DNA of 64,000 bases from assembly GCF_002854065.1 (NCBI RefSeq), contig NZ_CP024147.1; one strand, 5' to 3'. The DNA is from Escherichia coli (lineage in GTDB: Bacteria; Pseudomonadota; Gammaproteobacteria; Enterobacterales; Enterobacteriaceae). Below, piece after piece: positions 20,884 through 56,803 of the stretch. Numbering within the stretch: the first letter of the stretch is position 1; every line of letters begins with the position of its first letter. The notes below the pieces were generated by a model. It did no database searches. It was not told the origin of the DNA and saw only the letters and a list, made by a program, of their open reading frames with translations. Both the position numbers and the translations under genes were made by a program.

Positions 20884-22149
20884 TTACTTCAGCATAAAGT
20901 CATACTGAATACTCATTTTCACATCCCAGTAATTCAGGCGATCGCCCAGCACACTGCCATCGCGCTTTTCCCCCCCTTTATCGGCAGCAAGAAAGAAATT
21001 CATCCCTTGTAACGGCCCTTCGCTGACCCGATAGTTCATACCACCTAAGATACCCGCGCCTTCAATCCGCACATCTCGTTTACTGGATTCATAGCCGCGA
21101 GTCACAATCGGTGCAAATGTCAGTGTAAATTGCGGCGTTAAACGATAGTTGACGCCCAATTGCCAGGACTGCATTCCTTCACGGTTACGATAAAGACTTA
21201 ATGAAAAGGGATAGCCAATGTCGGTATCCACCACGGCACCATTCATTGCATGGCGCAAATAACCACCACTGCCAAATACGCTTCCCCACGGCGCATTCCA
21301 GGTCAATTGTCCACTAACCAACGCCGTTTCATTGGGCTGACTGGTATTACGACTTAAACCTTCGAGCTGCGCGTAAAAGCCGAGCAACTCCCCTTTCAAC
21401 GTATAATTCGGGTCGAGCGGTATGCTTTTCTCGAGAATACTTTGTATCTGATTGGAAACATCTTTCTGTACCGATGCCCCCAGAGAATAGCGACTGGTAT
21501 CATCATGCCAACTGGCGGCTAAAAAAGAACGTGCGCGATGTTTATCGTATTTTCCCGTCTGGCTGTTATAAACCCCTTCATCACGAATACCGGTTGTTGA
21601 ATCGGTCCATAAAAATACTCGTGAACGCCACATTCCCCACAGATCAATATTTGGCGTTAACGCCCAATAACCTAATGCTCCTTCAGAAACTGTCGGTAAT
21701 GTACGTTGCGAACTGCCAGCCATTAACGGAATACGATAAGGTAAGCTACCATAACTATAATCCGTCCCGAAGCGACCTAATTTAAGCTGGCTATTTTCAC
21801 TGGGTTTTATTTTTACTGCCCCCAGGGCAAAGCCAAAACTTTTATCACCATCAAGATACCACCGGGTACTCATATCAGCACGAGCACCTAATTTATAAAC
21901 ATAATACGCTCCGCCTTCAACGCCAATAATATTGGAATAATAACCACTATTGAAATCGAGCAATCCTCCCTGTACCCATGCGTAAATATCTCTTCCCGCG
22001 CCAGCACTGGGCTTATCCGCCCTGCGCAATTCGTTTTTCAGTCTGATGCGTAGTCCCGCTTCATCGTCAGCCAGTTGCGCCGCGTAAGCAGAGGTAAGGC
22101 CAGAGGCAGCCGTCAGGCAAATAACGGCCATGGCCACTATTTTTCTCAT
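20884..22149 (-). CDS. uidC: Outer-membrane beta-barrel protein of the glucuronide utilisation operon
   Basis: 421 aa with signal peptide and terminal aromatic residue pattern typical of porins; now separated from uidB/uidA by IS1. Confidence 0.9.
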   Translation of the reverse strand: MRKIVAMAVICLTAASGLTSAYAAQLADDEAGLRIRLKNELRRADKPSAGAGRDIYAWVQGGLLDFNSGYYSNIIGVEGGAYYVYKLGARADMSTRWYLDGDKSFGFALGAVKIKPSENSQLKLGRFGTDYSYGSLPYRIPLMAGSSQRTLPTVSEGALGYWALTPNIDLWGMWRSRVFLWTDSTTGIRDEGVYNSQTGKYDKHRARSFLAASWHDDTSRYSLGASVQKDVSNQIQSILEKSIPLDPNYTLKGELLGFYAQLEGLSRNTSQPNETALVSGQLTWNAPWGSVFGSGGYLRHAMNGAVVDTDIGYPFSLSLYRNREGMQSWQLGVNYRLTPQFTLTFAPIVTRGYESSKRDVRIEGAGILGGMNYRVSEGPLQGMNFFLAADKGGEKRDGSVLGDRLNYWDVKMSIQYDFMLK

Positions 22150-22187
22150 AGTTGCACCTTTGATGTTCTGATTATTTTTATTGAATA

Positions 22188-22323
22188 TTAATTAGTGATA
22201 TCGCTGATTAATTGCTGCTGCACTTTTTTACGATTATCAATTTCAACCACGATTTCTTTGAATTTTTTATCCGTGAGCGGATAAAACCAGATAATGACGA
22301 ATGCCAGTAACATAAATCCGCAA
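22188..22323 (-). pseudogene. uidB: 3' fragment of uidB (last 42 codons plus stop), detached by the IS1 insertion
   Basis: Hand translation of the minus strand across the target duplication continues the uidB frame ([42 protein letters not shown], then stop at 22188..22190); 415 + 42 = 457 codons. Confidence 0.8.
22315..22323. repeat. IS1 target-site duplication, copy 1 (AATCCGCAA)
   Basis: 9-bp sequence immediately flanking the IS1 end, identical to 23092..23100. Confidence 0.9.
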
Positions 22324-22338
22324 GGTAATGACTCCAAC

Positions 22339-22842
22339 TTATTGATAGTGTTTTATGTTCAGATAATGCCCGATGACTTTGTCATGCAGCTCCACCGATT
22401 TTGAGAACGACAGCGACTTCCGTCCCAGCCGTGCCAGGTGCTGCCTCAGATTCAGGTTATGCCGCTCAATTCGCTGCGTATATCGCTTGCTGATTACGTG
22501 CAGCTTTCCCTTCAGGCGGGATTCATACAGCGGCCAGCCATCCGTCATCCATATCACCACGTCAAAGGGTGACAGCAGGCTCATAAGACGCCCCAGCGTC
22601 GCCATAGTGCGTTCACCGAATACGTGCGCAACAACCGTCTTCCGGAGCCTGTCATACGCGTAAAACAGCCAGCGCTGGCGCGATTTAGCCCCGACGTATC
22701 CCCACTGTTCGTCCATTTCCGCGCAGACGATGACGTCACTGCCCGGCTGTATGCGCGAGGTTACCGACTGCGGCCTGAGTTTTTTAAATGGCGGAAAATC
22801 GTGTTGAGGCCAACGCCCATAATGCGGGCGGTTGCCCGGCAT
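22339..22842 (-). CDS. insB: IS1 transposase InsB (expressed as InsAB' fusion by -1 frameshift)
   Basis: 167-aa ORF with the canonical IS1 InsB sequence as I recognise it. Confidence 0.9.
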
Positions 22843-23036
22843 CCAACGCCATTCATGGCCATATCAATGATTTTCTGGTGCGTACCGGGTTGAGAAGCGG
22901 TGTAAGTGAACTGCAGTTGCCATGTTTTACGGCAGTGAGAGCAGAGATAGCGCTGATGTCCGGCAGTGCTTTTGCCGTTACGCACCACCCCGTCAGTAGC
23001 TGAACAGGAGGGACAGCTGATAGAAACAGAAGCCAC
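22761..23036 (-). CDS. insA: IS1 repressor/transposition inhibitor InsA
   Basis: 91 aa with zinc-finger-like CxxC...CxxC N-terminus; overlaps insB across the A6C slippery site. Confidence 0.9.
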
Positions 23037-36433: not shown

Positions 36434-39322
<2,889 letters not shown>

Positions 39323-48673: not shown

Positions 48674-49783
48674 TCACGGGTTAGCGGGGAAAATAGCCCC
48701 CAGTACCGTCTCCTGGCTTGCGCCAGTGACGGAAGGCAGATTTCCTGGTAATCCCGCCAGCGTCCGCCAGGCAAGCCAGGCGAAAGCCAATGCTTCCATG
48801 TCATCGCCACTAATGCCAACGGCATCGGTGGTGGTGACTTCTGTGCCTGGCAGTAATGCCGCCAGACGCGCCATGAGTAGCGGATTACGACTACCTCCAC
48901 CACATACCATCAATCGTTCGCAGCCACCGCTCAACAAAACTTGTTCAGAAATGGTCACGGCGGTGAGTTCTGCCAGTGTGGCCTGCACATCACGGGGATC
49001 AACACCCGGAAAATGGCGTAAATGGCGCTCCAGCCAGCCGTAGTTAAAGTATTCGCGTCCGGTGCTTTTCGGTGCAGGTTGCGAGAAATATGGGTCGCTG
49101 AGCATATTTTGCAGCAGTGGGAGAATAACTTTACCCGCCCGTGCCCACTCGGCATCTTTATCGTAAGGTTTACCGGCCTGACGCCAGATCCAGGCATCCA
49201 TCAGCATGTTACCAGGACCGGTATCGTAGCCGCCAACCGGCTGCCCAGGAATGAGCAGTGACAGATTGGCGATGCCGCCAATATTGAGCACCATTCGTCG
49301 CTCGGTTGGGTGAGCCAGAAAGGCATGATGGAACGCAGGTGCCAGCGGTGCGCCTTGTCCTCCCAAGGCAATATCGCGACGGCGAAAATCACCGACAACC
49401 GTAATTCCGGTGCGTGCCACAATTTGATTGTTATCGCCAATCTGTAAAGTGTGTGGTGCCACGCCCGTCGGTTCATGCCAGACGGTTTGACCGTGACAGC
49501 CGATCGCAACTATATCTCTCGCCTGCAGGTTTTGTTCCTTAAGCAAGGCATTGACCGCATCAGCAAAAAGTCGCCCGAGTTGAGTATCAAGCTGTCCAAA
49601 CTGCGAAAGTGTAAGCTGCTGGCCCTGGCAAATATCCAGTACAGCCTGTTTCAGAGACACCGGGATCGGCCAGCTCAAACTTGCCAGCTGTGCGACCCGG
49701 TGTTCATCAATTGTCGCCAACACAACATCAACACCATCAAGGCTGGTGCCTGACATAACGCCAATAAAGCGGCCCGATTTCAT
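48674..49783 (-). CDS. anmK: Anhydro-N-acetylmuramic acid kinase
   Basis: 369 aa beginning [19 protein letters not shown]. Confidence 0.95.
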
Positions 49784-50056
49784 AGTTCATCCTTTTTCAA
49801 TCTGACGTTTGCGCACCACTCAAACATAAACTTTTCGTGAATACCATGCGGAATGACCGATTTTTACCGTTGGTAGTAAAACATTATCTTCAAATCAATA
49901 ATCATCATGAATGTTTTGTTTATAATTGGTTGATCCTACTTTCATTATGATTTGCTCATATTTGGTAGAACATATAACCATGGATTCACATATGCCATAT
50001 ACTTTGACCATGAGGGATGCTTGCGTGGCGTTTCATGGTGAACAGGAGATTTTTCA

Positions 50057-50524
50057 ATGATTAAACGCGTATTGGTTGTTTCAATGGTAGGTCTGTCTCT
50101 TGTCGGTTGTGTTAATAACGACACCCTGTCAGGGGATGTTTATACCGCTTCTGAAGCGAAACAAGTACAGAATGTCAGCTATGGAACCATCGTTAACGTA
50201 CGTCCGGTACAGATTCAGGGCGGTGATGATTCCAACGTTATCGGTGCAATTGGCGGTGCTGTTCTTGGTGGTTTCCTGGGAAATACTGTTGGTGGCGGAA
50301 CCGGGCGTTCTCTGGCTACTGCAGCAGGCGCTGTTGCAGGTGGCGTAGCTGGTCAGGGCGTACAGAGTGCAATGAACAAAACGCAAGGTGTCGAGCTGGA
50401 AATTCGTAAAGACGATGGTAATACCATCATGGTGGTACAGAAACAAGGCAACACTCGTTTCTCTCCGGGCCAACGTGTCGTACTGGCCAGCAATGGCAGT
50501 CAGGTGACCGTTTCTCCGCGCTAA
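50057..50524 (+). CDS. slyB: Outer-membrane lipoprotein (glycine-zipper)
   Basis: 155 aa with lipobox (LVGCVN) and Gly-rich GAIGGAVLGGFLG segment. Confidence 0.95.
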   Translation: MIKRVLVVSMVGLSLVGCVNNDTLSGDVYTASEAKQVQNVSYGTIVNVRPVQIQGGDDSNVIGAIGGAVLGGFLGNTVGGGTGRSLATAAGAVAGGVAGQGVQSAMNKTQGVELEIRKDDGNTIMVVQKQGNTRFSPGQRVVLASNGSQVTVSPR

Positions 50525-50532
50525 ATAAGTTT

Positions 50533-50560
50533 GCGTGTGGTCAGGTTACTGACCACACGC
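50533..50560. terminator. Bidirectional terminator hairpin between convergent slyB and slyA
   Basis: 12-bp perfect stem GCGTGTGGTCAG / CTGACCACACGC with loop GTTA. Confidence 0.6.
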
Positions 50561-50570
50561 CCCCTTCATT

Positions 50571-51005
50571 TCACCCTTTGGCCTGTAACTCAATGATATT
50601 ATGCTCAAGTTTTGCGATGAGCGTAATCAGTTGTTCCAGTTCCTCTGCGGAGATGCCATGTAAGATTTCCGCGCGGGTTTTGTTAATAACAGCTTCCATT
50701 TCGCTGATCAGTGGCTCTGCCTTTTCCGTCAGTTTAATACGTTTAGCCCGACGATCGCTGGCACAAGTTTGACGCGAAATTAACCCTTTTTCTTCCAGTT
50801 GGTCCAGAGTACGGACCAGTGAGGGCTGCTCGATGCCAATCGCTTTTGCCAGTTGAATTTGCGACTGGTCTGGAGGTAACTGATGGATATTGTGTAACGT
50901 AACCCAATGGGTTTGTGTTAACTCCAGCGGTTTCAGGCGATGGTCTATCAGAGCACGCCATATGCGCACCAACCGTGCCAGATCAGAACCTAGTGGCGAT
51001 TCCAA
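50571..51005 (-). CDS. slyA: MarR-family transcriptional regulator
   Basis: ORF-track entry 50571..51011 (146 aa, MKLESPLG); the shorter 144-aa product from the in-frame TTG two codons downstream is the annotated start as I recall it, so the start is uncertain by 6 nt. Confidence 0.85.
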
Positions 51006-51205
51006 TTTCATCTCCTTATAATTAGCTTGCTAAGATATTATGCGGCTTTTAGAATAGTGTGCAGCAATTGTATTGCTAAAACAAATGTATTGCTGCATTT
51101 GGTTACCGTCAGACATATTTTTCAGAAATTGCGCGTAAATTTTTCGCACTTAAAGAATATTTATTAATCTAACGCAATATATTCGGTCGTAAAGGAATCT
51201 ACTTT

Positions 51206-51442
51206 GTGAAGTTTATGCTCAATGCAACAGGATTGCCCTTACAAGATCTGGTGTTCGGTGCGTCCGTCTATTTTCCTCCGTTTTTCAAAGCCTTCGCGTT
51301 TGGATTCGTCATCTGGCTTGTCGTACACCGCCTGCTTCGTGGCTGGATCTACGCCGGTGACATCTGGCATCCCTTGTTAATGGATTTATCGCTGTTTGCG
51401 ATTTGCGTTTGCCTTGCTCTGGCAATACTGATTGCGTGGTAA
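51206..51442 (+). CDS. ydhI: DUF1656-family small inner-membrane protein (AaeX-like)
   Basis: 78 aa, two hydrophobic helices; first gene of the ydhIJK cluster, divergent from slyA. Confidence 0.85.
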
Positions 51443-51444
51443 CT

Positions 51445-52302
51445 ATGTCAATTAAAACAATTAAGTATTTCTCAACAATCATTGTAGCGGTAGTTGCGGT
51501 TCTTGCCGGATGGTGGCTGTGGAATTATTACATGCAATCTCCGTGGACACGCGACGGGAAAATACGCGCAGAACAGGTTTCTATCACCCCACAGGTGTCG
51601 GGACGTATTGTTGAGCTGAATATAAAAGACAACCAGCTGGTTAATGCGGGGGATCTTATGCTCACGATCGATAAAACGCCCTTTCAGATCGCCGAGCTGA
51701 ACGCACAGGCTCAGCTGGCGAAAGCGCAATCTGACCTCGCAAAAGCCAATAACGAAGCGAATCGTCGTCGTCATCTCTCACAAAATTTTATTTCTGCCGA
51801 AGAACTCGATACCGCTAACCTCAATGTTAAAGCGATGCAGGCCAGTGTTAATGCCGCACAGGCGACGCTGAAACAGGCACAATGGCAACTGGCGCAAACG
51901 GAAATTCGCGCCCCGGTGAGTGGATGGGTGACTAACCTTACTACCCGCATCGGCGATTACGCTGATACCGGGAAACCGCTGTTTGCCCTTGTCGACAGCA
52001 ACTCGTTTTACGTCATTGGTTATTTTGAAGAAACCAAGTTGCGCCATATCCGCGAAGGTGCACCAGCACAAATTACCCTCTATAGTGATAACAAAACGTT
52101 ACAGGGTCACGTTTCCAGTATCGGTCGGGCGATTTATGATCAGAGCGTTGAAAGTGACTCAAGCCTTATTCCGGATGTGAAACCTAACGTCCCCTGGGTT
52201 CGACTCGCCCAACGCGTTCCCGTCCGCTTTGCGCTGGATAAAGTCCCAGGCGATGTCACGCTGGTGTCGGGCACCACCTGTAGCATTGCCGTAGGTCAAT
52301 AA
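51445..52302 (+). CDS. ydhJ: HlyD-family membrane fusion (periplasmic adaptor) protein
   Basis: ORF-track frame 51403..52302; start moved to the ATG at 51445 ([14 protein letters not shown]), giving 285 aa; N-terminal anchor plus coiled-coil region. Confidence 0.85.
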
Positions 52303-54314
52303 TGAACGCATCGTCATGGTCCTTGCGCAATTTGCCCTGGTTCAGGGCCACGCTGGCGCAATGGCGTTATGCGTTACGCAATACCATTGCCATGTGTCTG
52401 GCGCTGACGGTTGCCTATTATTTAAATCTGGATGAACCCTATTGGGCGATGACCTCGGCTGCAGTGGTTAGCTTTCCCACCGTTGGCGGTGTTATCAGCA
52501 AAAGCCTCGGACGCATCGCTGGCAGTTTGCTCGGAGCCATTGCGGCACTGCTTCTTGCCGGACATACACTTAATGAGCCGTGGTTTTTTCTATTGAGCAT
52601 GGCGGCGTGGCTTGGCTTTTGTACCTGGGCCTGTGCGCACTTCACGAATAATGTCGCGTATGCATTTCAACTGGCGGGCTACACGGCTGCCATCATCGCC
52701 TTTCCGATGGTTAATATTACTGAGGCCAGCCAGCTGTGGGATATCGCTCAGGCGCGCGTTTGCGAGGTGATTGTCGGTATTTTGTGCGGCGGCATGATGA
52801 TGATGATCCTGCCTAGCAGTTCCGATGCTACAGCCCTTTTAACCGCATTGAAAAACATGCACGCCCGACTACTTGAACATGCCAGTTTACTCTGGCAGCC
52901 TGAAACAACCGATGCCATTCGTGCAGCACATGAAGGGGTGATTGGGCAGATACTGACCATGAATTTGCTGCGTATCCAGGCTTTCTGGAGCCACTATCGT
53001 TTTCGCCAGCAAAACGCGCGCCTTAATGCGCTGCTCCACCAGCAATTACGTATGACCAGTGTCATCTCCAGCCTGCGACGTATGTTGCTCAACTGGCCCT
53101 CACCGCCAGGTGCCACACGAGAAATTCTCGAACAGTTGCTGACGGCGCTCGCCAGTTCGCAAACAGATGTTTACACCGTCGCACGTATTATCGCCCCGCT
53201 ACGCCCGACCAACGTCGCCGACTATCGGCACGTCGCCTTCTGGCAGCGACTACGTTATTTTTGCCGCCTTTATCTGCAAAGTAGTCAGGAATTACATCGT
53301 CTGCAAAGCGGTGTAGATGATCATACCAGACTCCCACGGACATCCGGCCTGGCTCGTCATACCGATAACGCCGAAGCTATGTGGAGCGGGCTGCGTACAT
53401 TTTGTACGTTGATGATGATTGGCGCATGGAGTATTGCTTCGCAATGGGATGCCGGTGCCAATGCATTAACGCTGGCAGCAATTAGCTGCGTACTCTACTC
53501 CGCCGTCGCAGCACCGTTTAAGTCGTTGTCACTGCTGATGCGCACGCTGGTGTTACTTTCGCTATTCAGCTTTGTGGTCAAATTTGGTCTGATGGTCCAG
53601 ATTAGCGATCTGTGGCAATTTTTACTGTTTCTCTTTCCACTGCTGGCGACAATGCAGCTTCTTAAATTGCAGATGCCCAAATTTGCCGCATTGTGGGGGC
53701 AACTGATTGTTTTTATGGGTTCTTTTATCGCTGTCACTAATCCCCCGGTGTATGATTTTGCTGATTTTCTTAACGATAATCTGGCAAAAATCGTTGGCGT
53801 CGCGTTGGCGTGGTTAGCGTTCGCGATTCTGCGTCCAGGATCGGATGCTCGCAAAAGCCGCCGCCATATTCGCGCGCTGCGCCGGGATTTTGTCGATCAA
53901 CTAAGCCGCCATCCAACACTGAGTGAAAGCGAATTTGAATCGCTCACTTATCATCACGTCAGTCAGTTGAGTAACAGCCAGGATGCGCTGGCTCGCCGTT
54001 GGTTATTACGCTGGGGTGTAGTGCTGCTGAACTGTTCTCATGTTGTCTGGCAATTACGCGACTGGGAATCGCGTTCCGATCCGTTATCGCGAGTACGGGA
54101 TAACTGTATTTCACTGTTGCGGGGAGTGATGAGTGAGCGTGGCGTTCAGCAAAAATCACTGGCGGCCACACTTGAAGAATTACAGCGGATTTGCGACAGC
54201 CTTGCCCGTCATCATCAACCTGCCGCCCGTGAGCTGGCGGCAATTGTCTGGCGGCTGTACTGCTCGCTTTCGCAACTTGAGCAAGCACCACCGCAAGGTA
54301 CGCTGGCCTCTTAA
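52302..54314 (+). CDS. ydhK: FUSC (fusaric acid resistance)-family inner-membrane efflux protein (AaeB-like)
   Basis: 670 aa with two hydrophobic blocks separated by a soluble region. Confidence 0.85.
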
Positions 54315-54836
54315 TTACTTAATTACACCACAGGCATAGCGTTCACCGCCACCGCCCAGCGGTTTAGGTTGATCGGACATATTATCGCCGCCAACGTGGA
54401 CCATCAGCGCTTTGTCTTTGATTTCATCCAGTGATTTCAGACGAGGCGCGATGACGGCATTGGTAGCTTTGCCGTCATTATTGACGACCAGTGCAGGCAG
54501 ATCGCCTAAATGCCCGGCACCTTCTGGCCCTTCATGTTTACCGGTATTTTGTGGATCAAGATGCCCGCCTGCGGATTCCGCGGCGCTGGCTTTGCCATCT
54601 TTGGTGGCTGGCTGGCAGCTTCCTTTGGCATGAATATGGAAGCCATGTTCACCGGGGGGTAATGCTTTCAGATCGGGCGAAAACTCCAGACCTTTATCGG
54701 TTTCAGTAATGGTGACGCTACCAATTGACTGCCCAACCCCTTGCGACGTGACGAGGTTCATCTCGACTTTTTCACTGGCAGCTTGTGCGCCGGTCGCAAC
54801 AACCAGCGCCAGAATGGCCAGACTAAAACGTTTCAT
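54315..54836 (-). CDS. sodC: Periplasmic Cu/Zn superoxide dismutase
   Basis: ORF-track frame 54315..54887; start moved to the ATG at 54836 (MKRFSLAILALVVATGAQA), giving 173 aa; His-rich metal-binding motifs present. Confidence 0.95.
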   Translation of the reverse strand: MKRFSLAILALVVATGAQAASEKVEMNLVTSQGVGQSIGSVTITETDKGLEFSPDLKALPPGEHGFHIHAKGSCQPATKDGKASAAESAGGHLDPQNTGKHEGPEGAGHLGDLPALVVNNDGKATNAVIAPRLKSLDEIKDKALMVHVGGDNMSDQPKPLGGGGERYACGVIK

Positions 54837-54916
54837 AGGACCTCCGTTCATTGTGCATTCCTGAATAAGTGTAAACCAGTGACACATTTTTGAACGGCGG
54901 CTATTCCTAAAAGTGC

Positions 54917-55813
54917 TTACGGTACGTCGTACCCCAGTGCCGCTTTACGGATACGAAACCATTGTTGACGGGTCATTTTCAGTGTTTCTGCTTCGACAGC
55001 TGCCCGTACGCGCTCAATTTTACCTGAGCCGATAATTGGCAGCGGCTGCGACGGTAAACGTAATACCCAGGCGTAAACCACCTGTTCAATCGAGCCCGCG
55101 TTTAACTCCTCCGCCACCACAGCCAGTTCATCACGCAGCGGCTGGAAATAATCATCATTAAACAGACGACCACCACCAAGGCAGGACCACGCCATCGGAC
55201 GAACACGCAGTTGTTGCAGTTGGTCGAGCGTGCCATCCAGCAGTAACGGCTGATGTACCGGGGATATTTCCACCTGATTAGTGGCAAGGGTAAACGGCAG
55301 ACGTGATTGCAACAGGGCAAATTGCGCAGGCGTAAAGTTCGATACGCCAAAATGACGCACTTTGCCGCTCTGATGCAGATGTTTGAACGCGTCCGCCACT
55401 TCATCGGCATCCATTAACGGGTCCGGGCGGTGGATTAACAGCAGATCCAGATGATCGGTCGCAAGATTAATTAGCGACTGTTCGGCGCTCTTAATGATGT
55501 GATCGCGGTCAGTGATGTAATGACCAATGACGTTTTCTTCACGCGCGGTCGTCGCGATACCGCATTTACTGACGATTTCCATCCGCTCACGCAGGTGAGG
55601 TGCCAGTTTCAGCGCCTCGCCAAACGCCGCTTCGCACTGATAGCCACCATAAATATCAGCATGGTCCACGGTGGTCACGCCGAGATCCAGATGCTCTTCA
55701 ATAAAACTGACCAGCTGGCGGGCGGACATATTCCAGTCCATCAATCGCCAGTAGCCCATCACAAAACGGGAAAACTCCGGGCCTTGCGGCGCAATAGTAA
55801 TACGCTGAACCAT
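54917..55813 (-). CDS. ydhF: Aldo-keto reductase family oxidoreductase
   Basis: 298 aa. Confidence 0.9.
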   Translation of the reverse strand: MVQRITIAPQGPEFSRFVMGYWRLMDWNMSARQLVSFIEEHLDLGVTTVDHADIYGGYQCEAAFGEALKLAPHLRERMEIVSKCGIATTAREENVIGHYITDRDHIIKSAEQSLINLATDHLDLLLIHRPDPLMDADEVADAFKHLHQSGKVRHFGVSNFTPAQFALLQSRLPFTLATNQVEISPVHQPLLLDGTLDQLQQLRVRPMAWSCLGGGRLFNDDYFQPLRDELAVVAEELNAGSIEQVVYAWVLRLPSQPLPIIGSGKIERVRAAVEAETLKMTRQQWFRIRKAALGYDVP

Positions 55814-55861
55814 ATTCGCTTCCTCTTATCAGATATGAGAGGAGTATACGCAAGATTAGGC

Positions 55862-56101
55862 TCAAAAGAGTGATGGTTGCTCCGGTTCGTCTGATGACGC
55901 TGGCTTATTTGCACGTAATTTGCGCATTAATCGCTGCCGACAAAGGCGCAGCACCTCTTGTTTTTCGCCATCGCTCATTTTATTCCAGTTAAAACGCTCA
56001 TCCCGGCTTCGAAAACAGCCGCGACAAAACCCGCGTTCGTCAGACTGGCAAATTCCCCGGCACGGGCTCTGGACGGGAAAGAACTCTAATTGCTCCGCCA
56101 C
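55862..56101 (-). CDS. ydhL: DUF1289-family cysteine-rich small protein
   Basis: 79 aa with CRGIC...CRGC pattern suggesting a metal-binding fold. Confidence 0.85.
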   Translation of the reverse strand: MAEQLEFFPVQSPCRGICQSDERGFCRGCFRSRDERFNWNKMSDGEKQEVLRLCRQRLMRKLRANKPASSDEPEQPSLF

Positions 56102-56173
56102 TTAGCCCTCCTCAGATAAGATTATTACCATTATTGAAGCTGTTAATGTCCAAAGTAGCAACTTTGCTTGCAC

Positions 56174-56189
56174 TAGACCGACTGGTCTA
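56174..56189. promoter_or_regulatory. NemR-box-like inverted repeat TAGACCGACTGGTCTA upstream of nemR
   Basis: TAGACC-N4-GGTCTA dyad about 15-30 bp upstream of the nemR start; matches the autoregulatory operator as I recall it. Confidence 0.5.
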
Positions 56190-56203
56190 CTACACTCCAA
56201 CAC

Positions 56204-56803
56204 ATGAACAAACACACCGAACATGATACTCGCGAACATCTCCTGGCGACGGGCGAGCAACTTTGCCTGCAACGTGGATTCACCGGGATGGGGCTAAGCG
56301 AATTACTAAAAACCGCTGAAGTGCCGAAAGGGTCCTTCTATCACTACTTTCGCTCTAAAGAGGCGTTTGGCGTTGCCATGCTTGAGCGCCATTATGCCGC
56401 ATATCACCAGCGACTGACTGAGTTGCTGCAATCCGGCGAAGGTAACTACCGCGACCGCATACTGGCTTATTACCAGCAAACACTGAACCAGTTTTGCCAA
56501 CATGGAACCATCAGTGGTTGCCTGACAGTAAAACTCTCTGCCGAAGTGTGCGATCTTTCAGAAGATATGCGTAGCGCGATGGATAAAGGCGCTCGCGGCG
56601 TGATCGCCCTGCTCTCGCAGGCTCTGGAAAATGGCCGTGAGAACCACTGTTTAACCTTTTGTGGCGAACCGCTGCAACAGGCACAAGTGCTTTACGCACT
56701 ATGGCTGGGTGCGAATCTGCAGGCCAAAATTTCGCGCAGTTTCGAGCCGCTGGAAAACGCGCTGGCACATGTAAAAAACATTATTGCGACGCCTGCCGTT
56801 TAG
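56204..56803 (+). CDS. nemR: TetR-family electrophile-sensing repressor
   Basis: 199 aa. Confidence 0.9.
   Translation: MNKHTEHDTREHLLATGEQLCLQRGFTGMGLSELLKTAEVPKGSFYHYFRSKEAFGVAMLERHYAAYHQRLTELLQSGEGNYRDRILAYYQQTLNQFCQHGTISGCLTVKLSAEVCDLSEDMRSAMDKGARGVIALLSQALENGRENHCLTFCGEPLQQAQVLYALWLGANLQAKISRSFEPLENALAHVKNIIATPAV

Follow-up and report, generated by a model that had tools for sequence, protein, structure and literature searches.

The operon ydhI-ydhJ-ydhK occupies positions 51206-54314 of the window, by which we mean the whole 64,000-nucleotide stretch of Escherichia coli DNA (contig NZ_CP024147.1) that was analysed; its coordinates agree with the list of open reading frames and with the RefSeq annotation of E. 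coli CUWW06, to which the region 50500-54400 is 100% identical (Table 1). The locus belongs to the E. coli core genome and is carried by 5425 of 5426 complete genomes. As stated in the initial annotation, the three genes are tightly packed or overlapping, which agrees with both gene lists and with the junctions: a gap of 2 nt lies between ydhI and ydhJ (TAA CT ATG), and ydhJ and ydhK overlap by 1 nt (TAATG). On its other side ydhK converges with sodC, the junction being 0 nt. It should be noted that the mechanically called open reading frame of ydhJ is longer than the annotated gene and begins at TTG 51403. Since all three products have strong family matches and the locus is conserved in the core genome, these are not chance open reading frames. 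A search of 49500-56500 against Rfam found no RNA families. The database also contains YdhJ-YdhK fusion proteins (P0002, P0048), which could result from the change of a single base in the TAATG overlap or from an assembly error.

Table 1. Genes and regulatory features of the slyA-ydhIJK region (window coordinates).
Feature	Position	Strand	Description
slyA	50571..51005	-	144 aa, TTG start, MarR-family regulator; RefSeq, NCBIfam and Pfam
Divergent control region	51006..51205	.	200 bp, GC 31.5% vs 51% for the window
SlyA box I	51022..51033	.	Perfect palindromic consensus TTAGCAAGCTAA, read on the - strand
Candidate sigma-70-like promoter toward ydhI	51027..51055	+	TTGCTA-17-TAGAAT, 9/12 consensus matches
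Candidate sigma-E-type promoter	51145..51172	+	CGCACTT-N16-TCTAA, from motif search; weak match
SlyA box II	51161..51172	.	TTATTAATCTAA, TTAN6TAA, 9/12 consensus matches
ydhI	51206-51442	+	GTG start, 78 aa, DUF1656 membrane protein with two hydrophobic segments, AaeX/FusD-type accessory subunit
ydhJ	51445-52302	+	ATG start, 285 aa, inner-membrane-anchored periplasmic adaptor of the HlyD/EmrA/AaeA type
ydhK	52302-54314	+	670 aa, predicted FUSC/ArAE-family inner-membrane exporter, internally duplicated, ALMT-like

YdhI matches DUF1656 (PF07869; E 1.8e-14, 53.9 bits, cutoff 26.5) and has two hydrophobic segments in its hydropathy profile (residues ~21-44 and 58-76), so that its description as a small two-helix membrane protein is borne out. 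With AaeX it shares 33% identity over 51 amino acids (E 1e-5). The aligned enterobacterial loci agree in the position of its GTG/ATG start and in the AAGGA Shine-Dalgarno sequence, and a gene for a DUF1656 small subunit lies beside an adaptor gene also in about six related loci (L006, L008, L010-L014).

YdhJ, for which a HlyD-family periplasmic adaptor had been proposed, indeed matches HlyD_3, HlyD_D23 and Biotin_lipoyl_2 of Pfam (E ~1e-17) and scores 134 against TIGR01730 (cutoff 94.9). Together with the AF2 model (pLDDT 83) these matches give the protein all the parts of a membrane fusion protein: an N-terminal anchor, lipoyl and beta-barrel domains and a coiled-coil hairpin. The single N-terminal anchor spans residues 8-26 in the hydropathy profile and appears in the model as a transmembrane helix of residues 3-31; the hairpin consists of helices 78-109 and 118-150 and is ~48 Å long. 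No helix or strand elements are found in the model outside the transmembrane helix, hairpin, lipoyl and barrel parts. Among sequences in the PDB the best match is an RND-type adaptor fusion construct from P. aeruginosa (6vej), and EmrA, AcrA and MacA are further relatives.

YdhK matches the FUSC family over its full length (PF04632; residues 20-661, E 2.4e-140, 469.7 bits, cutoff 30.9), in agreement with its earlier designation as a large FUSC-family inner-membrane protein. The homology comparison with AaeA and AaeB that had been suggested as a check gave 41% identity for YdhJ (E 2e-68; 32% with MdtN) and 24% identity over 521 amino acids for YdhK (E 9e-28). Hydrophobic blocks lie at ~20-175 and 360-515 of YdhK, and its AF2 model (pLDDT 93.7) is all-helical, with no large periplasmic domain. 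A comparison of the N-terminal half (19-196) with the C-terminal half by hhalign revealed two repeats (probability 95.7%, E 1e-8), which are seen by profile-profile comparison only, BLASTP between the halves finding no significant repeat. When the model was compared with the PDB by Foldseek, the plant channels AtALMT1 and AtALMT9 were found with a probability of 1.00 and a target-normalised TM-score of 0.45-0.55, and no other match exceeded a probability of 0.2. A profile search against PDB sequences likewise found ALMT1, 9 and 12 at E ~1e-6; the single-sequence search against the PDB found a marginal ALMT12 match alone (E 0.24).

In the profile alignment R71 of YdhK coincides with R80 of AtALMT1 and R152 with R165, and both arginines are invariant or nearly so in a set of 90 homologues. 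They are kept in the first repeat only, the corresponding D492/N491 region of the second repeat being without arginines, so that the ALMT-type fold together with the pore arginines of TM3 and TM6 is predicted for the first repeat only. We infer from the model that YdhK is probably a single chain of two ALMT-like repeats, each of six transmembrane helices and a cytoplasmic helical domain; one such chain would therefore correspond to an ALMT homodimer. Such a pseudo-dimeric pore may export carboxylate anions driven mainly by the membrane potential, an energy coupling (channel or uniport vs proton antiport) that is suggested solely by the fold similarity with its TM-score of 0.45-0.55.

A different coupling would apply if YdhIJK were a tripartite antiporter driven by the proton motive force, with YdhJ docking to TolC as in EmrAB-TolC and xenobiotic aromatic acids being expelled directly to the medium. 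EmrA, AcrA and MacA are membrane fusion proteins to which YdhJ is genuinely homologous, related FUSC systems (MdtNOP, FusCDE with Bucl8, and FuaABC) carry their own outer-membrane factor (OMF), and the finding that about half of the SlyA regulon changes its expression in Salmonella when tolC is lost (PMC12506092) would fit TolC-dependent efflux of the ligands of SlyA. However, an OMF gene is absent from the ydhIJK operon and from the flanks of each of the eight related loci that were inspected, which lowers the claim to membership among the envelope-spanning tripartite pumps but not the possibility of it. Furthermore, the short hairpin of YdhJ has ~58 residues fewer than that of the OMF-bearing MdtN, neither the additional elements in YdhJ nor the large periplasmic domain in YdhK is seen in the models, the structural relatives of YdhK are channels only and not antiporters, and AaeAB itself has no assigned outer-membrane partner. 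A tripartite antiporter is therefore possible but rather doubtful, and we prefer the ALMT-like pore.

The regulator gene slyA is transcribed divergently from the operon across an AT-rich spacer, as had been described. Its product matches the NCBIfam SlyA equivalog NF002926 (278.7 bits, cutoff 120) and Pfam MarR (E 1.9e-16). RefSeq, the NCBIfam SlyA model and the paper reporting the EMSA experiments (PMC5797941) all place the start at TTG 51005; the spacer is therefore 51006-51205 and 200 bp long, and not 194 bp (51012..51205) as given previously, when slyA was taken to start at the ATG at 51011. In an alignment of five enterobacterial loci the slyA-proximal half of the spacer is invariant, and the ydhI-proximal half is variable and differs strongly between genera. 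SlyA box I is the sole perfect consensus match in the 64-kb window and is identical in all five aligned loci; at a distance of 22 bp upstream of slyA, it is listed as the PslyA site in Table 3 of PMC5797941. SlyA box II can be equated with the site given there as "161 bp upstream of slyA" and is not conserved between genera in the aligned loci.

The proposed control of the adjacent efflux system by its MarR regulator is already experimental fact: in E. coli SlyA binds the slyA-ydhI spacer in EMSA (PMC5797941), Salmonella SlyA represses ydhI ~19-fold in vitro, an effect that is relieved by salicylate (PMC6401476), and ydhIJK is in the SlyA-repressed set in RNA-seq (PMC12506092). With the equivalog match, the perfect operator in the shared spacer, and binding, in-vitro transcription and relief by salicylate known from the literature, slyA and ydhIJK qualify as a pair of MarR regulator and divergent efflux operon. 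In Salmonella, 4-hydroxybenzoate (4-HB) and 2,3-dihydroxybenzoate (2,3-DHB) are endogenous ligands of SlyA (PMC12506092), and deletion of ydhIJK delays growth in fusaric acid, a growth delay and not a measured efflux (PMC6401476). A lack of both SlyA dependence and phenotype, named in the initial annotation as what would speak against its reading, is contradicted by the published binding, repression and fusaric-acid delay.

The direction of SlyA control differs between the reports on E. coli and on Salmonella. When SlyA was overproduced in E. coli K-12, ydhIJK went up 2.2-fold, and slyA-ydhIJK was counted among the SlyA-activated divergent operons (PMC5797941); since the operon was raised and not repressed, the sign of SlyA control in E. 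coli is unsettled. One could go further and regard E. coli SlyA as mainly an activator of ydhIJK, a counter-silencer of H-NS on the AT-rich spacer, to which the classical picture of a MarR repressor is inapplicable. This agrees with the overproduction result and its classification by the authors, with the spacer GC content of 31.5%, which is typical of H-NS targets, and with the strong divergence of the ydhI-proximal half between genera. Yet E. coli does not differ from the other enterobacterial loci in the perfect palindrome or in the sequence around it, in-vitro transcription on the Salmonella region gave repression (PMC6401476), and the effect of overproduction may be indirect. We consider a mainly activating role unlikely and retain the repressor that is released by its ligands, as described for Salmonella.

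The promoter of ydhI can be given in candidates only, because a scan for promoters and terminators was not enriched over shuffled sequence (promoters 3 vs 5.0, terminators 5 vs 6.0). The candidate sigma-70-like promoter overlaps SlyA box I with its -35 hexamer and is conserved in all aligned loci. This conservation was rejected as proof of a ydhI promoter because the same bases, by eye, fit a slyA promoter on the opposite strand (TTAGCA-N17-TATTCT), which may be what the conservation reflects instead.

A second input was not mentioned in the initial annotation, namely the reported membership of ydhIJK in the sigma-E regulon. According to PMC7075262 and PMC2685091, the operon belongs to this regulon, its RNA rises ~20-fold upon induction of sigma-E, and overexpression of ydhK is toxic and lowers viability; PMC7075262 also places a sigma-E start site at ydhIJK. 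In the spacer, the candidate sigma-E promoter, whose -10 element overlaps SlyA box II, can be compared with the consensus GGAACTT/TCAAA (PMC1312014). Motifs of the same match quality occur 77 times in the window; within the spacer no other is directed towards ydhI. The motif is not conserved across genera in the aligned loci. That ydhIJK is primarily a sigma-E envelope-stress effector unrelated to aromatic-acid export, or a largely cryptic paralogue with an incidental fusaric-acid effect, would be in line with this induction, with the toxicity, with the entry of ydhK transposon insertions in a published table of genes that are candidates for fitness of UPEC in systemic infection, and with the expectation of the authors of the 2025 paper that ydhIJK has an as yet unidentified endogenous substrate (PMC12506092), but is improbable, considering that each of the three proteins has its homologue in an exporter shown to transport aromatic acids, that SlyA senses aromatic carboxylates, that the anion-binding arginines are conserved in YdhK, and that the sigma-E motif is weak and unconserved.

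The most probable explanation in our opinion, held with good though not full confidence, is that ydhIJK is a known core-genome paralogue of the aromatic-carboxylic-acid exporter AaeXAB, regulated by SlyA, with sigma-E as second input and with YdhK as ALMT-like translocator. YdhK would be the translocator in the inner membrane, with R71 and R152 of its first repeat matching the arginines that bind organic anions in the ALMT pore; YdhJ would be the adaptor anchored in the inner membrane, with its short hairpin, and YdhI, like AaeX or FusD, a small membrane protein in an accessory role. SlyA binds the shared spacer, in which it has the perfect palindrome and the weaker box II, and aromatic carboxylates (salicylate and, in Salmonella, 4-HB and 2,3-DHB) release it from the DNA, whereby expression of the pump would be coupled to the level of its likely substrates. 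Envelope stress would act through sigma-E as the second input.

A more far-reaching version of this explanation is offered tentatively, since we think it less likely to be right than wrong. YdhK might work as an ALMT-like anion channel or uniporter of fused and asymmetric build, and not as a proton antiporter, through which endogenous aromatic carboxylates (4-HB, 2,3-DHB or another metabolite) exit down the membrane potential, YdhJ and YdhI gating or shielding the periplasmic exit. With SlyA it might make up a homeostatic loop by which the level of SlyA ligands in the cell is set and the counter-silencing of virulence genes thereby tuned, and sigma-E might open the valve under envelope stress.

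ydhIJK is an already known and well-annotated operon. Its regulation by SlyA and sigma-E and its fusaric-acid phenotype in Salmonella being in print, the observation as originally stated adds nothing new. What we count as new in this analysis are the perfect SlyA palindrome at 51022-51033, the model of YdhK as an ALMT relative, its fused-dimer duplication, the restriction of the arginines to the first repeat and the lack of a linked OMF gene. The initial annotation was right to call the physiological role poorly defined, and this still applies; for example, a transporter table from 2024 lists ydhK under TC 2.A.85.1.6 as uncharacterized (PMC10971958). YdhIJK is one of the few envelope transport systems of E. 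coli still without an identified natural substrate, and its genes adjoin that of a regulator which is now believed to respond to aromatic intermediates of metabolism. If it is true that the FUSC family represents ALMT-like anion channels driven by the membrane potential, the label "efflux pump" would need revising. The questions of substrate and mechanism were already familiar to the field and are not raised by the present observation.

Of the known systems, AaeXAB (yhcRQP) for the efflux of p-hydroxybenzoate and other aromatic carboxylic acids, which is encoded elsewhere in the E. coli chromosome, is the one to which the architecture of ydhIJK had been likened, and rightly so: the gene order (DUF1656 protein, adaptor, FUSC protein) is the same, all three products are homologous, and in both cases a regulator gene is divergent. 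Both adaptors have a short hairpin and neither operon has a linked OMF gene; in the literature the partner of AaeAB in the outer membrane appears as "AaeAB-?". The regulators differ, AaeR being of the LysR type and SlyA of the MarR type, and for ydhIJK an additional sigma-E input is reported. Judged by their sequences, YdhI, YdhJ and YdhK are paralogues and not orthologues of AaeX, AaeA and AaeB; they score far below the NCBIfam equivalog cutoffs with 21.4 vs 82 (NF008615), 243.4 vs 400 (NF007850) and 120.3 vs 870 bits (NF007916). Two of three loci with a 50%-identical relative retain the three-gene module, and in the locus of a 28%-identical relative the adaptor-FUSC pair is kept, a DUF1656 gene not being called there.

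MdtNOP (yjcRQP) of E. coli also combines a FUSC-type inner-membrane protein with a HlyD adaptor. Unlike ydhIJK, its operon includes an OMF (MdtP), the hairpin of MdtN is the longer one, and ytcA, the small gene at the head of the operon, bears the annotation of a putative lipoprotein and not of a DUF1656 protein. MdtNOP was rejected as the closest paralogue because the similarity between YdhK and MdtO is just E 6e-6 over 198 amino acids. FusCDE-Bucl8 from Burkholderia and FuaABC from Stenotrophomonas share the FUSC protein and the adaptor with YdhIJK, and FusCDE also has a small DUF protein. Both are fusaric acid resistance pumps, which is paralleled by the fusaric-acid phenotype of the Salmonella ydhIJK deletion; however, their operons contain an OMF gene of their own, which ydhIJK does not, and a LysR regulator induced by fusaric acid.

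We know of no solved structure of a FUSC/AaeB-type exporter. The only solved relatives of YdhK are the plant ALMT channels (AtALMT1, AtALMT9 and GmALMT12/QUAC1), with which it has in common the fold of six transmembrane helices and a cytoplasmic helical domain. For the mycobacterial Rv2571c, a single-repeat bacterial FUSC protein, it has been argued that it is an ALMT-like anion channel that exports alpha-ketoglutarate and has an essential arginine in TM6 (bioRxiv 10.64898/2026.03.10.710584). ALMT and Rv2571c are single-repeat homodimers, whereas YdhK is a fused chain of two repeats that comes with an adaptor and a small subunit.

The ydhI-ydhJ-ydhK operon and its divergent neighbour slyA lie on the E. 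coli chromosome: the best-matching strain, CUWW06, is 100% identical to the window over 50500-54400, and 5425 of 5426 complete E. coli genomes carry this stretch (at least 80% covered in 5409). The gene calls were taken from an ORF list and the RefSeq annotation of CUWW06, which agree. The operon coordinates of the initial annotation are exact, and the genes are indeed tightly packed or overlapping, with a 2-nt gap between ydhI and ydhJ (TAA-CT-ATG) and a 1-nt overlap between ydhJ and ydhK (TAATG). The protein database contains YdhJ-YdhK fusion ORFs of 845 aa, with a 99%-identical YdhK, and of 900 aa in Salmonella (entries P0002 and P0048); these could stem from a change of one base in the TAATG overlap (window 52300-52304) or from assembly error. 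Another entry, P0065, is a 535-aa shortened YdhK variant with 519 member sequences.

Genes and candidate promoters of the slyA-ydhIJK region (window coordinates)
Feature	Position	Strand	Basis and remarks
slyB	50057-50524	+	ORF list and RefSeq
slyA	50571-51005	-	ORF list and RefSeq; TTG start at 51005, 144 aa
candidate sigma-70-like promoter	51027-51055	+	consensus match, TTGCTA-17-TAGAAT; -35 hexamer within palindrome
candidate sigma-E-like promoter (weak)	51145-51172		motif match, CGCACTT-N16-TCTAA; overlaps second SlyA box
ydhI	51206-51442	+	ORF list and RefSeq; 78 aa
ydhJ	51445-52302	+	ORF list and RefSeq; 285 aa
ydhK	52302-54314	+	ORF list and RefSeq; 670 aa
sodC	54315-54836	-	ORF list and RefSeq

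Family matches and hydropathy bear out the gene contents: YdhI has two hydrophobic segments and a DUF1656 match (E 1.8e-14), YdhJ hits the adaptor families HlyD, CusB and lipoyl, and YdhK matches the FUSC family along its full length (E 2.4e-140). Among solved structures the best sequence relative of YdhJ is a P. aeruginosa RND-type adaptor fusion construct (6vej); EmrA, AcrA and MacA are also found. The proposed likeness to aaeXAB holds as well, since the K-12 aaeXAB locus has the DUF1656, adaptor and FUSC genes in the same order, with a divergent regulator in both, and all three products are homologous (YdhI-AaeX 33% identity over 51 aa, E 1e-5; YdhJ-AaeA 41%, E 2e-68; YdhK-AaeB 24% over 521 aa, E 9e-28). 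The best NCBIfam models for the three proteins are the AaeX, AaeA and AaeB equivalogs. All scores are far under the cutoffs, which makes ydhIJK a paralogue of aaeXAB rather than a second copy. The MdtNOP proteins are further removed (YdhJ-MdtN 32% identity; YdhK-MdtO E 6e-6 at best). YdhI is presumably an accessory subunit, as is AaeX or FusD.

A search of 1.84 billion library representatives gave 3116 YdhK relatives at E<=1e-3; very few of them are more than 30% identical over the full length. The DUF1656-adaptor-FUSC module is present in two of three loci with a 50%-identical YdhK relative; the third has the adaptor-FUSC pair only, and so does the locus with a 28%-identical relative. No outer-membrane factor (OMF) gene was found in any of these four loci. 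Their regulators vary, with a LysR gene in two of the three 50%-identity loci and none in the 28%-identity locus, and linkage to slyA was seen in enterobacterial loci only. In a Klebsiella oxytoca locus (L013:760-1683) a DDE transposase gene between slyA and ydhI parts the regulator from the pump operon.

The slyA-ydhI spacer is AT-rich as described (31.5% GC versus 51% for the window); its length is, however, 200 bp (51006-51205) rather than 194 bp, because slyA is annotated from TTG 51005 and not from ATG 51011. The EMSA fragment in PMC5797941, a "200 bp intergenic region", has the same length, and the SlyA-site distances given there also fit. The published SlyA consensus TTAGCAAGCTAA has its sole perfect match in the 64-kb window at 51022-51033, and a second box, TTAN6TAA, lies at 51161-51172; both are PslyA sites in Table 3 of PMC5797941. 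In an alignment of five enterobacterial loci, one with a YdhK just 63% identical, the slyA-proximal ~100 bp (51006-51100) show essentially no variation, the palindrome and the neighbouring TTTTAGAATAG included, whereas the ydhI-proximal half (51100-51205) is highly variable, neither the candidate sigma-E promoter nor the second SlyA box being conserved. This split fits the published description (PMC6401476). Both promoter elements are candidates only, because neither is statistically distinctive and the conserved sigma-70-like element is also compatible with a slyA promoter on the opposite strand. A strong hairpin with a 12-bp stem (8 GC pairs) and T-runs at 50533-50560, between the convergent slyB and slyA, is probably a bidirectional terminator for both.

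That SlyA controls the adjacent pump is supported by EMSA with the spacer in E. coli K-12 (PMC5797941) and, in Salmonella, by a SlyA footprint close to the -35 of the ydhI start site and ~19-fold ydhI repression in vitro, relieved by salicylate (PMC6401476). RNA-seq places ydhIJK within the SlyA-repressed set, and 4-hydroxybenzoate and 2,3-dihydroxybenzoate inhibit SlyA (PMC12506092). In E. coli K-12, by contrast, ydhIJK was up 2.2-fold with SlyA overproduction (PMC5797941). Judged from the variable ydhI-proximal half, ydhI control may differ between species, which could explain these opposite effects. A growth phenotype has also been described: in 30 ug/ml fusaric acid, Salmonella ydhIJK and slyA ydhIJK mutants grew late and slyA mutants better (PMC6401476). 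The confirmed observation and its supported interpretation thus concern a known operon, annotated and classified, and the hypothesis with its two tests, SlyA dependence and efflux phenotype, has already been addressed in print. ydhIJK is reported in the sigma-E regulon, its RNA rising ~20-fold upon sigma-E induction (PMC7075262); ydhK overexpression reduces viability (PMC2685091); ydhK insertions appear in the candidate fitness gene table of a UPEC bacteraemia screen; and the TCDB assignment table of a 2024 paper lists ydhK as 2.A.85.1.6, "uncharacterized" (PMC10971958).

The ydhK stop TAA (54312-54314) directly adjoins the convergent sodC stop (54315-54317), 0 nt apart, and there is therefore no space for a terminator between both genes. 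Read-through from either gene must run into the other, so that mutual antisense or transcriptional interference between the sigma-E/SlyA operon and sodC is possible. In the related enterobacterial loci L010, L012 and L013, ydhK and sodC share 8-25 nt at their 3' ends.

Elsewhere in the window, uidB and uidC are separated by an IS1-family element (22339-23036). The same IS1 is present in CUWW06, where 667 bp of the 5' part of uidC (window 21657-22323) are missing, which looks like an IS1-adjacent deletion. In rsxC (38650-39275) BLAST self-matches reveal internal tandem repeats (period ~96 bp, 88-92% identity).

Our additions are modest refinements, consistent with recent family literature: a predicted ALMT-like pseudo-dimer with a single conserved arginine pair, a short-hairpin adaptor, the absence of a linked OMF gene and the conservation pattern across the spacer. 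The YdhJ model (pLDDT 83) comprises a TM helix at the N-terminus, lipoyl and barrel domains and a hairpin of two helices (~32 residues each, ~48 A), with no structured elements past these. YdhJ is without ~58 hairpin residues present in MdtN, which has its own OMF. TolC is a possible outer-membrane partner of YdhJ; even for AaeAB a major review gives the partner as a question mark ("AaeAB-?").

With 90 diverse homologues as the alignment, AlphaFold2 gave a confident, all-helical model of YdhK (pLDDT 93.7, pTM 0.91). In a PDB fold search its only real matches were plant ALMT1 and ALMT9 (probability 1.00, target-normalised TM-score 0.45-0.55), and the family sequence profile matched only ALMT1, 9 and 12 (E about 1e-6). 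ALMT channels are homodimers, in which the organic anion is bound in the central pore by arginines of TM3 and TM6. In the profile alignment R71 and R152 of YdhK are aligned with R80 and R165 of AtALMT1; among the 90 homologues R71 is nearly invariant and R152 invariant. An hhalign comparison shows the halves of YdhK to be homologous to each other (probability 95.7%, E 1e-8), the position of R152 being D492/N491 in the second half. A single-repeat bacterial FUSC protein, Rv2571c, has been argued to be an ALMT-like alpha-ketoglutarate channel (2026 preprint, bioRxiv 10.64898/2026.03.10.710584). We infer that YdhK would move a carboxylate anion outward, plausibly powered by the membrane potential. 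Whereas ALMT is a single-repeat homodimer, YdhK has both halves in one chain and the arginine pair in the first half only, and one YdhK chain would thus be a fused, asymmetric counterpart of the ALMT dimer.
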